Source of the DNA: a virus
Virus record (IMG/VR): IMGVR_UViG_3300045988_103705
Length of the DNA stretch: 64,000 nucleotides
Strand: one strand, 5' to 3'
The position numbers were made by a program, and so were the translations under genes. Below are positions 21,355 through 24,433 of this stretch, one piece after another (the first letter of the stretch is position 1; each line of letters begins with the position of its first letter). The notes under the pieces were generated by a model. That model did no database searches and was not told where the DNA came from. It saw nothing but the letters and a program-made list of their open reading frames with translations.

Positions 21355-21552
21355 TTAGAAAGTACCCCAGACAATTTCATTTTCAATAAATGGTAATTCT
21401 GAATAATGACTTGTTCCATTTCCAATTTTAAGATGAACTGTATTAGATTCATCAATTACTATAATTAATTCTCCCTTTAATAAAATTGGATTATTTGTTT
21501 TCCAATTTTCTTCTGTATCTATCTTATGAGAGATTCTAGTATCAAAAGTCAT
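21355..21552 (-). CDS. tail-fibre N-terminal-domain-like small protein
   Basis: shares ENWKTNNPILLKGE and KIGNG motif with the N-termini of the 21622..22959 and 23601..24061 gene products. Confidence 0.45.
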   Translation of the reverse strand: MTFDTRISHKIDTEENWKTNNPILLKGELIIVIDESNTVHLKIGNGTSHYSELPFIENEIVWGTF

Positions 21553-21621
21553 TATTATGACCTCCTTAATAAAAAGATAAAGCCCATATTTATTAAATAA
21601 ATATGGGCTTTATCTAAAATT

Positions 21622-22959
21622 TTATATTACTGTGCTAGAGCTTCCACAATTAAAAATAATTGTAGCAGTCTAAGTTAAATCATCAATCTTTCCACTTTTA
21701 GCAACAGATGATAAGTCTGCATCATTAGCTTTTTTAGCAAGAGCCGCAGGTAACCCGTTGATATTCTCTATGGTAGGTTGAGCACGAGTTACGCTAATAA
21801 TACCATCAGTCTCAGACACCGCGATTACAAATTGATTTGCTACAACAGAATCTTCTTTATCTAAAGCGTTTACCTTAGAATCTGCATAATCTTTAGCCTC
21901 TTGTTTAGCGGAATTAATTTTCCCCTAAGCTGTCTCTGCTGTATCATATGCTGAAAGATCTACCATTCCAGCTAAAACATCCCACTTAAATTCTTCTTCT
22001 CCCACATCTATACAAACAATATTAGTACCCGCGGGATAACTCTTCCCAGAACCTTCTACGAAATCGTCTGTAGTAGTGAATTTATCAAGAATGTTATAAA
22101 CTTTTCCTTCTTCTGTTGCAGTTAGTTCTGGTAGAGAAGCGAACGCAATAGATCCTCCTGCTTTATAAGTAGAGGAAATTCTAGCAGCAATTTGCTAATC
22201 AGTATAGGTTTTAGCTTCATCATAAGCACCTTTAATAGTAGTGGAAGAACCACTTCCTTCACCAATTAGCTCTGTTTTTGCAGCTCCAATTTTAGAATCT
22301 ACTTCTGTGGTTTTTGCATATTCATTGATTTTTAGAGCTGCAATTTTTTCATCAGTGGCACTAGCAGCCTCCTCGATAGCTTCGCTTTTTGCTGTGTCTG
22401 CAGCGCCAGCTGCGTCATAAGCATTGGATTCAGTATAAGCTGCTGATCCAAGTCCATGAACTTTTACTTCTTTTTCAGAACCAGTAATTCCAAATTTTAC
22501 AGTACCATTAGTAGCTCCTTCAGCTAAATTATAAGTAGGAGCGGTAAGAGAAATAGTATTTACATCTGTCCAAGATCCGCCAGTTTTTGGTCTAGATTGA
22601 AGCTTAAAGCCCATATCTCCATTTTTAACAATCTAATATTGTGTATCGGTATCCTGAACTTTTTCTCCAATAAAATCTTCGAGTCCGGTAATTTCAGTTG
22701 CTGCATAAGTTGGTTTACTTGCCGCTTTGGCCCAAGAATAAACATCAGCGGCAGTTCCGCTTACCCATTTTAAAGTTTTAAAATCTGATTCGCCATCACC
22801 GATTTTTAACAAATAGGTAGGCTCATTTTGAGCAACTCCAGTTTCAACAGGAACTTCAACAACCGCCATTTCTCCTTTTAGAAGAATGGGGTTATTGGTA
22901 TCCCAATTTTCATAAGTATCATATTTTAATTGGATTCTTGTATTAAAAGTTGTAGCCAT
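21622..22959 (-). CDS. tail fibre-like protein, TAG-recoded
   Basis: 445 codons ending TAA; in-frame TAG at 22633, 22195, about 21936 and about 21672; N-terminus ENWDTNNPILLKGE...KIGDG...W; GGAGGAAG Shine-Dalgarno. Confidence 0.6.
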
Positions 22960-22985
22960 TATTTATCTTCCTCCAAGTTGATTTT

Positions 22986-23580
22986 TATTCACTAACAGTA
23001 GCATCTCCGCCATTTAAGATAAGCTCTGTACCAAGAGTCTAAGTAATTTTTTCTATATTTATGTTATTGACAATCATAGTTCCATCGCCTGTAATAGAAA
23101 CGCCGTTTTCACTAGTAGTGCTTTTTACTACACCAAGAGCCTCTACTGTAGCAATAGGAATAGTAACTGCGCCATCGCTAACCTAAAGAGGAGTAGTTCC
23201 TACGGTTATACTCTTAATCTTCTCTGCTAAAGCCGCGGGAAGACCAGTAATTTTCTCCTATGCAATCGCTTTTACGCCAAGAGTTTTATCATCAGGATCA
23301 ATTTCTAATTCATCACTGACTCCTTTGATTTCTGCTAAACCCTATAATTTAGCAATTAGAGTGTCTTGAACTAAAGATGATCCTTCTACTTTGTCGACTT
23401 TATTAGCTAACTTAGTATCTACACTACTTGTAGTTTCGTATCCACTTAAATCTACAAATCCCGCAAGAACATCCCATTTGTAAGTTCCAGCATCATCAGT
23501 GTCAATACATACTACATTAGTTCCAGCTGGATATTTATTATCAGCTCCTTCAACGAAGTCTTCAGTAGTGGTGAAAGCAT
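22986..23580 (-). CDS. tail fibre paralogue (C-terminal domains); start unresolved
   Basis: reading frame KDAFTTTEDFVEGADNKYPAGTNVVCID is homologous to the middle of the 21622..22959 product; contains TAG codons; the AAGGAGG plus ATG nearby is out of frame. Confidence 0.4.
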
Positions 23581-23600
23581 CTTTAAAATGCCTCCTTATT

Positions 23601-24061
23601 TTAGTCTACTGCTGTCCCACAGTTTAATATTAAAGTAAAACCTTCAACATCCACTATTTTATCAAGTCCTACAGAATTAATTTCTCCGGTTCCATCTGAA
23701 AGTATTTTTATCTAGTTATTCTAACTACTCCCCTTAATTAAACCAAGATTTTCTTCTGTTCCCGCCGGAATAGTAACTTTATTATCTTCAACCGGCAAAT
23801 CTTTATTTCCGATAGAGATAGTTTCTATTACTTTATCCTAAGATATTGGAGTATACCACTCTAATGTGCCATCTTCTCTTTTTCTAATAGATTGCCCTGT
23901 TGATGCTTCTGTAAATCCTTTTAATGAAATCTGTCCAATTCCATCAATAACAATAGATTGATTGTCTACATCAACATTTACCAAACTACTATTTATATAT
24001 TTTAACTATTTCCACTCGGTGGATCCATCTCCAATTTTTAACTTTCCAGTATCTATTTCAA
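23601..24061 (-). CDS. tail fibre N-terminal domain protein, TAG-recoded
   Basis: AAGGAGG plus TTG start; FKRGTSEKWTELNPILRQGEPGFEIDTGKLKIGDGSTEW; five in-frame TAG; TAA stop. Confidence 0.5.
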
Positions 24062-24175
24062 ATCCCGGCTCACCTTGACGAAGAATTGGATTTAATTCGG
24101 TCCACTTCTCTGATGTTCCTCGCTTGAACTAAAATATTGTTTTATAAACAACTTCAGCCAAAGTTACTCCCTCCT

Positions 24176-24433
24176 TTAGCCAATTAGTCCGCCATCATAA
24201 ATAATAGTTGTATCTTCTGGAGGAAGAGGCTAATCTCCGCCTCCACCAGAGGGCTACAACACCCATTCATGATCAGAATTGAGAATATATTTATTTCCAT
24301 TTTCAATTACATATGCCGAACTGCCTGGCTTTCGGTTTGTAGGGAGATTAGCAACATCACTTTGGTAATCACATAAAAAATGAATCGCGCCATATATAAT
24401 TTTATTGGCTGTATTTTTACCAACAGTAATCAT
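24176..24433 (-). CDS. small hypothetical protein, TAG-recoded
   Basis: AAAGGAGAATAAGT ATG; about 85 aa with two in-frame TAG; TAA stop. Confidence 0.4.

Follow-up and report, generated by a model that had tools for sequence, protein, structure and literature searches.

How are tail-fibre genes translated when their frames are interrupted by TAG in a part of a phage genome where the surrounding genes lack this codon, and do these TAGs help to time their expression? The question is raised by region 21355-24433 (minus strand) of a 64,000-nt window of the virus record IMGVR_UViG_3300045988_103705, the window being the whole stretch of DNA analysed here. A sequence-only reading had drawn attention to this region as a cluster of related tail-fibre genes, and its coordinates do extend exactly from the stop codon of open reading frame (ORF) E to the start codon of A, the five ORFs being labelled A to E. 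We consider it quite probable that the region holds a fibre operon, A-B-(remnant of C)-D, of a gut phage using genetic code 15, that this operon occupies a variable slot and has been reshaped by a deletion, and that full-length A, B and D depend on the decoding of UAG. For gene calling, TAG was set as sense and a codon-usage model was used whose training set consisted of long genes free of TAG; a few starts were curated. The features on which the argument draws are given below in the order of transcription.

24598..24626, minus strand: intrinsic terminator, 12-bp G+C-rich stem followed by a T run, 3' of tRNA-Met (terminator scan)
24434..24597, minus strand: leader and putative promoter region (alignment with six relatives)
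24176..24433, minus strand: gene A, 85 amino acids (aa), 2 in-frame TAG (codons 60 and 68)
23601..24161, minus strand: gene B, short fibre, 186 aa, TTG start, 5 TAG (codons 11, 52, 108, 147 and 150)
23578..23596, minus strand: orphan ribosome-binding site (RBS; AAGGAGG) and ATG of a deleted gene F, joined in a different frame to internal sequence of C
22985..23578, minus strand: C remnant, 594 nt, 197 codons, 4 in-frame TAG, the 3' part of a fibre gene of ~400 aa
21622..22959, minus strand: gene D, long fibre, 445 aa, 4 TAG (codons 109, 255, 345 and 430), anchor, shaft and tip
21575..21615, both strands: perfect 20-bp palindromic hairpin with a T run, scored as a terminator, ends the A-D operon
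21355..21552, minus strand: gene E, anchor domain alone, 65 aa, 0 TAG, own RBS directly past the hairpin
20609..20637, minus strand: consensus promoter TTGACA-17-TATAAT with extended -10 TG, one of four sites in the window matching 12/12
20097..20171, minus strand: suppressor tRNA, anticodon CUA (ARAGORN; 60.2 bits with the Rfam tRNA model)

The frames of A to D contain 15 TAG and not a single TAA or TGA, triplets which together occupy 5.5% of the positions in the region. These open frames span 85 to 445 codons, and nine relatives have kept the frames and most of the TAG positions. Among the different codons seen in relatives at the TAG positions of the window, 8 of 13 are CAA or CAG, and, conversely, CAA stands in the window at 2 of 6 positions where relatives have TAG. 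Such exchanges include one TAG of gene A, which is CAA in the relative L033 (nucleotide identity of A in relatives is 85-100%), and codons 345 and 430 of gene D, which read CAG or CAA in relatives. The TAG at codon 11 of B aligns with the glutamine (Gln) of VQFKR in structures of the phage hyaluronidase HylP, and in the GIY-YIG endonuclease encoded elsewhere in the window the signature reads YIGqT, where q is TAG. Downstream of the cluster, at a distance of 1.4 kb (1.45 kb counted from the stop of D), is the tRNA(CUA) gene, whose product is identical to the phage tRNA-Gln(UUG) at acceptor-stem positions 2-6 and at G73. Called genes end in TAA (72) or TGA (20), the caller having taken TAG as sense by construction. 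Taken together, these alignments and the tRNA indicate that TAG is a sense codon for Gln (genetic code 15) in some genes of this phage; if UAG were not suppressed, ribosomes would terminate at codon 60 in A, at codon 11 in B and at codon 109 in D.

That these genes encode fibres is suggested by their N-termini. The sequence-only reading had claimed three N-terminal anchor domains, and these, of the form W..NPIL..GE...KIGDG, are found in B, D and E by Pfam and PHROG and by the alignment of the three domains with each other. In B, the Pfam family Mtd_N (PF18454) is detected at 1.5e-13 and 50.9 bits, above its gathering cut-off of 26.3 bits. PHROG tail-fibre families match B, D and E at 1e-8 to 6e-14, and B also matches tail spike families. 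B aligns with residues 9-56 of solved phage hyaluronidases (6x3m, 2yvv); for D no sequence match was found among PDB structures. Homologues of the D shaft occur in Faecalibacterium and Roseburia phages, and in the Faecalibacterium phage FP_Taranis the homologue immediately follows the genes for the baseplate and a "putative tail fiber". From these homologues, Faecalibacterium or Lachnospiraceae are candidate hosts. Two paralogous shaft/tip regions had also been proposed, and their relationship is clear: residues 1-121 of C align with 292-410 of D at 40% identity (E-value 1e-21), and residues 115-194 of C with 105-184 of B at 39% identity (E-value 1e-14). Since C shares its shaft with D and its tip with B, the paralogy is modular, and the fibre genes may well have exchanged shaft and tip modules among themselves.

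The products of A and E are smaller. Gene A encodes a GGGG linker and a C-terminal IIYDGGLIG motif; Pfam, PHROG and NCBIfam searches gave no known family for it, and NCBIfam gave none for D. A-like genes stand before fibre genes in the relatives L035, L047 and L050. Gene E is kept in diverged relatives at equal length and with the same C-terminus (WGTF), its ratio of non-synonymous to synonymous substitution rates (dN/dS) is 0.30, and it is probably a functional anchor-only protein; the dN/dS of D is 0.07 (first 100 codons, compared with L033).

What had been overlooked in the pair of shaft/tip regions is that one of them, C, is a deletion remnant without a start. Seven independent IMG/VR contigs carry an additional 1,645 bp between B and the sequence that corresponds to C. 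Encoded there are a fourth fibre gene, F (~350 aa, Mtd_N-like N-terminus, 2 TAG), and the N-terminal half of a full-length C of ~400 aa; a full-length C gene is present in L008. In the window, the junction falls at ~23578-23582 within an AGATG microhomology, where the RBS and ATG of F run directly into internal sequence of C. The two reading frames do not match at this point, and the ATG of F now opens a nonsense ORF of 44 codons, while the frame of C has no in-frame ATG, GTG or TTG with an RBS ahead. A GTG at 23620 was considered as a start for C and rejected, as it lacks an RBS, overlaps the end of B and lies where the relatives place the deletion junction. Along its 594 nt, the remnant does not differ at all (100% identity) from the 3' portion of the full-length L034 gene, which makes the deletion very recent. 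A 31-mer across the junction has no exact copy in the two collections searched, IMG/VR and JGI metagenome contigs, and the deletion is therefore without confirmation from an independent assembly. As judged from this comparison of contigs, "C" is a recent, untranslatable remnant left by a microhomology deletion of 1,645 bp that removed F and the 5' half of C.

The same site varies in other relatives. In L007 and L032 both F and C are missing and D directly follows B. Identity is mosaic, with A, B and C 100% identical to L034 and D 94.8% identical to L034 and 96.8% to L001. Different fibre genes occupy the same slot in L047 and L035, whose ATPase is 59-64% identical, and in L050 (51%-identical ATPase) genes similar to A, B and F lie a few kb further downstream of the ATPase gene. 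The slot is bordered by the ATPase gene and tRNA-Met on one side and by a 110-aa gene on the other, and this layout across contigs marks it as a conserved site for variable host-range cassettes. In L030 (IMGVR_UViG_3300045988_080502, ~11480-11500) a 17-nt deletion has removed the RBS of gene A and left its ATG intact, a further sign of small and large deletions accumulating in the fibre slot. Cassettes are gained and lost and modules are shuffled at this hot spot in near-identical genomes, which bears on host-range prediction. Two other routes to fibre variation were considered and rejected. For a diversity-generating retroelement target of the Mtd type, the repeats of the region, at most 51 nt and 70-76% identical, reflect paralogy and provide no template/variable pair; no reverse transcriptase was found among the annotated genes, a set that does not take in every ORF of the window. 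For switching of the invertase or shufflon type (Gin/Cin/Rci), all five ORFs are co-oriented and no cassette is flanked by inverted repeats; apart from the terminator hairpin, inverted repeats are 14-26 nt long and 72-93% complementary, and no recombinase adjoins the cluster.

The genomic setting helps to place this operon. Genes of the window lie almost all on the minus strand, in agreement with a negative GC skew, and 31 tRNA genes, one of them with anticodon CUA, lie within 19040-36906. The neighbours of the cluster had been described as standard-looking, and the gene at 20938-21270 and the ATPase gene at 24826-25947 are both TAG-free. TAG-free annotated genes also include tRNA-His guanylyltransferase, RNA ligase, a Ro/TROVE-like RNA-binding protein and uracil-DNA glycosylase (UDG), a set typical of auxiliary and early functions of a large phage, except that UDG, RNA ligase and nicotinamide phosphoribosyltransferase (NAMPT) each have a single in-frame TAG. 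Ribosome-binding sites of the AAGGAGG type (judged by eye) indicate a Firmicutes host. Several IMG/VR contigs of 100-146 kb match the window at 95-99% identity; against GenBank phages, megablast with 50 kb of the window gave no close DNA relative, the sole match being 58 nt to phAss-1. In a near-identical relative, the portal protein shares 36% identity with its phAss-1 counterpart and 30% with the portal proteins of Enterococcus EF1-like phages. The lineage is a large uncultured gut phage of Firmicutes, barely described so far.

Is the TAG content of the cluster exceptional? In-frame TAG codons number 2 in A, 5 in B, 4 in C, 4 in D and 0 in E, so that the proposed figure of four or more in each is true for B, C and D only; gene E has no Gln codon of any kind, which makes its lack of TAG uninformative. 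Nor does the cluster have the highest TAG density, as had been claimed. Its 5.1 per kb compares with 8.8 per kb in the FolD unit and 8.6 per kb in the block at 62242-64000, and the densest stretch of 3,079 nt (from ~60901, 60.9-64.0 kb) has 25 in-frame TAG against 15 in the cluster. Four single genes are denser in TAG than B, the densest gene of the cluster. The sets compare as follows.

FolD unit 61035-62139: 26.4 TAG per 1000 codons
Plus-strand block 62242-64000: 25.7 TAG per 1000 codons
Plus-strand island 46081-47593 with ribbon-helix-helix (RHH) and helix-turn-helix (HTH) genes: 20.5 TAG per 1000 codons
Fibre cluster: 15.3 TAG per 1000 codons (5.1 per kb)
Two nuclease genes within the tRNA array: 10.1 TAG per 1000 codons
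Remaining 79 genes: 0.4 TAG per 1000 codons

Counted per gene class with TAG as sense, the frequency is strongly non-uniform rather than even. The cluster, with 15 TAG in 978 codons, is enriched 38-fold over the 79 ordinary genes, which have 5 in 12,495 codons (odds ratio 39, Fisher p = 8e-14); it is no different from the other TAG-bearing sets and numerically below three of them. TAG is absent from 75 of the 94 called genes, and its share of Gln codons is bimodal, either ~0% or, in the TAG-bearing sets, about half. Per codon, TAG occurs in the cluster at 0.015 in frame and 0.023 off frame, whereas in ordinary genes these values are 0.0004 and 0.015. The head module, which starts at 62242, continues in the relative L083 with 74 TAG in 3,847 codons (19.2 per 1000 codons), including 12 in the portal gene and 8, 14 and 10 in further large genes.

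Several of the TAG-bearing units are of interest in themselves. The unit at 61035-62139 (minus strand) contains a FolD-like gene (tetrahydrofolate dehydrogenase/cyclohydrolase) with 4 TAG, preceded upstream by a 110-aa ORF with 6 TAG, at 54 per 1000 codons the maximum of the window; NCBIfam gave no match for this TAG-rich ORF. The unit is metabolic, not structural, and divergent from the head module. The island at 46081-47593 is on the plus strand in a minus-strand region, the GC skew flips there, and its four short ORFs, among them an RHH gene (DUF6290), a DUF5659 gene and an HTH-like gene, contain 8 TAG in 390 codons. Inside the tRNA array lie a GIY-YIG homing endonuclease gene (29027-29809, minus strand, 3 TAG) and a small nuclease-like ORF (35174-35587, minus strand, 1 TAG); the former is found in L030 and L034 and is missing from L029 and L031, and is accordingly regarded as mobile. 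The NAMPT gene (5020-6234, minus strand) has its TAG as the penultimate codon (...CVqK, then TAA), and this TAG may act as a working stop early in infection with TAA as a backup two codons later. The UDG gene (39018-39731, minus strand) has one in-frame TAG, and its ORF is intact only if translation begins at a GTG and TAG is taken as sense; the TAG lies at what we take to be the position of Gln in the motif YPPQKDVF of E. coli Ung.

The regulatory signals around the cluster set it apart from its surroundings. The terminator at 24598..24626 closes the early/tRNA transcription unit lying upstream, just ahead of the cluster; relatives have kept it, and in L032 and L033 a change in the stem is compensated on its other side. 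The hairpin at 21575..21615 is also present in L032 with an altered sequence. Between the terminator and gene A, the conserved leader of 165 nt has a TATAGT box resembling a -10 element at ~24478-24483, a small hairpin in the 5' untranslated region (UTR) and no usable -35, and a promoter scan gave no sigma-70-like site of at least 9/12 in it; this leader, 24434..24597, is a putative promoter region of the operon. A 17-mer of the leader was examined as a shared late-promoter motif and has no copy in the late-module locus L083, so that no late promoter is defined; sites similar to it in the window are only the TATAAT boxes of a repeated cassette ahead of TAG-free genes. By comparison, the 12/12 promoter at 20609..20637 heads a TAG-free operon consisting of a 111-aa gene (20261-20596) and the suppressor tRNA.

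The repeated cassette just mentioned, comprising promoter, 5' UTR and RBS, occurs on the minus strand at ~2248, 11918, 14481, 21330, 32292, 37250, 45151 and 48310, in each case ahead of TAG-free genes, and one copy lies immediately past gene E. Its fullest form is TTGAAA-17-TATAATATATATAGAAAGTTAAGGAAAGGAAGT, the -35 being weaker or absent in some copies, and the copies resemble a family of early or middle promoters specific to this phage.

At least two other TAG-rich units have recognizable promoters, namely the island, with a near-consensus TGGACA-17-TATAAT with TG at 46029, and the gene at 62242-63312 (plus strand), with TTGACA-17-TATTAT and an extended -10 TG at ~62213-62241. The latter gene is the first of the head module and the most TAG-dense long gene (11 TAG in 356 codons); translation of it probably begins at the second ATG, 62266. 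Since these units, at 46029 and 62213, have near-consensus promoters of the host type, their expression would be limited by translation and not by transcription, which would suit a translational timer. The label "sigma factor" for 62242-63312 comes from PHROG 5767 and from the GenBank annotators of Enterococcus phages (37% identity) only; Pfam, NCBIfam and PDB sequence searches gave nothing for a sigma identity.

On the reading proposed here, the Mtd_N/HylP-like anchor would dock the fibres to the baseplate, and full-length A, B and D would be made only once the phage tRNA(CUA) decodes UAG as Gln. Terminators bound the operon on both sides, and it is itself without a promoter of the sigma-70 type. 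Dependence on the suppressor may delay or insulate fibre translation, which is the hypothesis published by Borges et al. (bioRxiv 10.1101/2021.08.26.457843). The bimodal distribution of TAG fits such a timer, as do 12 A+T-rich genes with 55 Gln codons and 0 TAG, the location of the suppressor tRNA in a TAG-free operon with a 12/12 promoter, and the insulation of the fibre operon by terminators together with its lack of a sigma-70 promoter. An isolated TAG-rich fibre operon within a TAG-free early/tRNA region is also in keeping with an association of TAG with late genes.

A number of observations weigh against this reading. The Mtd_N scores of D (21.6 bits) and E (25.7 bits) are both slightly below the gathering cut-off. 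The cluster has no adjoining baseplate or tail genes and sits in an early/tRNA region between the ATPase gene and small genes, so that the name "tail fibre" stands for domain homology together with context in other phages. Late expression of the fibre operon is suggested by TAG content, promoter type and analogy only. TAG is also dense in non-structural genes, some of which have sigma-70-like promoters, and in L083 a 350-aa capsid-like gene and two of its neighbours have 1, 0 and 0 TAG. Thus the proposed correlation of TAG with late or structural function holds in that TAG is concentrated in late modules, and fails in that TAG is dense in FolD, regulators and endonucleases and nearly absent from that capsid-like gene; with TAG also in UDG and RNA ligase, the link to "structural" is loose. 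In more distant relatives, the fibre genes that occupy this slot contain few TAG, 3 in ~800 codons. Finally, TAG and CAG interchange freely among close relatives, which speaks against strong selection on single TAG codons.

These last points lead to the alternative that survives best, a serious contender to which we give somewhat less than an even chance, namely that TAG is passively tolerated as a by-product in genes needed only after the suppressor is present. Here A+T pressure turns CAG to TAG, early genes are kept TAG-free by purifying selection, and, as a change from TAG to TAA would create a stop, TAG would accumulate as by a mutational ratchet. In agreement with it, TAG density drops with rising G+C content at third codon positions (Spearman -0.41, p = 8e-5), and TAG/(TAG+CAG) is 0.83 in TAG-bearing genes, comparable to 0.92 for TTG/(TTG+CTG) and 0.85 for TTA/(TTA+CTA). 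The exchange of TAG with CAG or CAA in 95%-identical relatives, the lack of conservation of TAG density in the slot of more distant relatives, and the TAGs of FolD, UDG, RNA ligase and endonuclease genes point in the same direction. The 12 TAG-free genes of equally high A+T content show that the effect is gene-specific, for which reason base composition was rejected as the sole cause of the TAG distribution, although the ratchet predicts such genes too. Similarly, 57% of Gln codons in the cluster end in AG against 21% of lysine and glutamate codons (Fisher 2e-4), a difference that TAG-free genes do not show; selection for TAG could be the cause of this excess, but the ratchet predicts an excess as well. 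From sequence alone, a timer and passive tolerance fit equally well, and the two models are compatible with each other. The codon statistics, with TAG replacing CAG and AG-ending Gln at about twice the expected level, nonetheless offer a testable contrast between an active timer and a ratchet.

An explanation by import, in which fibre cassettes exchanged horizontally among code-15 phages, as homing endonucleases are, bring their TAG along regardless of timing, appears unlikely. It draws on the mosaic identity of D as against A, B and C, on the coming and going of F, C and the GIY-YIG gene among relatives, on the unrelated fibre genes in the slot of relatives with 64% ATPase identity and on the shuffling of shaft and tip modules between B, C and D. 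Yet the codon-usage score of the cluster (0.19-0.38 per codon) is as high as that of resident genes, its TAG share of Gln codons is 0.50 compared with 0.52 in the resident head module, and import explains the variability of the slot and not why the early genes of the recipient lack TAG. More speculative still, and in our view a long shot, is a two-step switch in which the suppressor tRNA, made early from its own consensus promoter, permits translation of the sigma-like factor (62242-63312), which in turn switches on late operons devoid of sigma-70 promoters, including the fibres. If true, TAG would be the trigger of a transcriptional cascade and not just a brake on each late gene, and the TAGs and flanking terminators of the fibre operon would also shield it from read-through of the surrounding early tRNA units. 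That the TAGs are true stops and the region a set of fragmented pseudogenes or an assembly artefact is effectively refuted, since, although C is really truncated and L030 seems to have lost the RBS of gene A, the long frames without TAA or TGA have high coding scores, D and E are under purifying selection, TAG interchanges with CAA/CAG and aligns with the HylP Gln, tRNA(CUA) is present and identical TAGs are retained in nine independent assemblies.

Some further features of the window may be recorded here. A transfer-messenger RNA at 28739-29059 (minus strand) is a full-length match to Rfam RF00023 (76.8 bits; gathering score 47) on which ARAGORN is silent; its neighbours within the tRNA array are the GIY-YIG endonuclease ORF on one side and tRNA-Lys(CTT) on the other. 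Two matches to the tRNA model are missing from the ARAGORN list, one of 117 nt at 26255-26371 (minus strand, 49.8 bits), which may be an intron-containing or otherwise interrupted tRNA, and a weak one at 25980-26064 (minus strand, 32.4 bits). Beside the tRNAs, no theta or hepatitis delta virus-like ribozyme was found at the Rfam gathering score. The gene at 14538-16304 (minus strand, 0 TAG) encodes a 588-aa protein with the shoulder and repeat domains of the major vault protein and an SPFH/Band-7 region (Pfam MVP_shoulder, 5e-18), which is unusual in a phage.

How does this locus compare with known systems? The closest parallel is with mixed-code gut phages, which likewise read TAG as Gln with a phage tRNA(CUA), combine standard early with alternative late genes, and have scattered recoded modules, a recoded homing endonuclease and the same timing hypothesis. 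Mixed-code phages of this kind (TAG to Gln) are reportedly also treated by Ivanova et al. in 2014. The island here differs in being only 3 kb long, bracketed by terminators and placed within a tRNA array region, and in belonging to a lineage outside GenBank phages; no release-factor or tRNA-synthetase "code-change module" was found among the annotated genes, which are not all the genes of the window. Borges et al. (bioRxiv 10.1101/2021.08.26.457843) describe structural and lysis genes in the alternative code with early genes in the standard one, recoded modules scattered in the Jade, Sapphire, Agate and Lak clades and recoded homing endonucleases, and propose that suppressor-dependent translation times late gene expression; their mixed-code phages include the Garnet, Amethyst, Topaz, Lak and crAss-like clades. 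Mixed-code gut phages with a suppressor tRNA are a subject, too, of Peters et al. 2022 (PMC9523058), and block-wise dual coding is a premise of the Mgcod preprint as well.

A second likeness is to phAss-1, with the proposed Phassvirus group, and the large Enterococcus EF1-like siphoviruses, which share a genome of ~136-146 kb, an origin in the human gut, a set of over 30 tRNA genes with tRNA(CUA) among them, TAG in virion and several DNA-enzyme genes, nicotinamidase/NAD genes and a predicted Clostridia host. For the phAss-1 group, Babkin et al. 2023 (PMC10607447) report TAG in virion and some DNA-enzyme genes together with tRNA(CUA) genes. The relation to phAss-1 is nevertheless distant, with three suppressor genes there against one seen in the window, and the fibre genes of Phassvirus differ in having pectate-lyase domains. 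At the level of the protein, streptococcal prophage HylP (6x3m, 2yvv, 2c3f) and Mtd of the Bordetella phage BPP-1 have the same anchor motif, W..(N)P.L..GE.G.E.DT...KIGDG, whereas the fibres of the window are without the hyaluronidase beta-helix or the C-type-lectin tip of Mtd. Considering these systems together, the locus is genuine but unexceptional, one more case of what has already been published, and leaves current understanding unchanged; its local additions are the corrected TAG counts, the rank in density, the deletion remnant and variable slot, the terminator-bounded layout and the statistics of codon replacement. As a small code-15 island in a standard-code early region, it provides a clean example from a barely described gut-phage lineage, in which annotation with table 11 would fragment these host-range genes.

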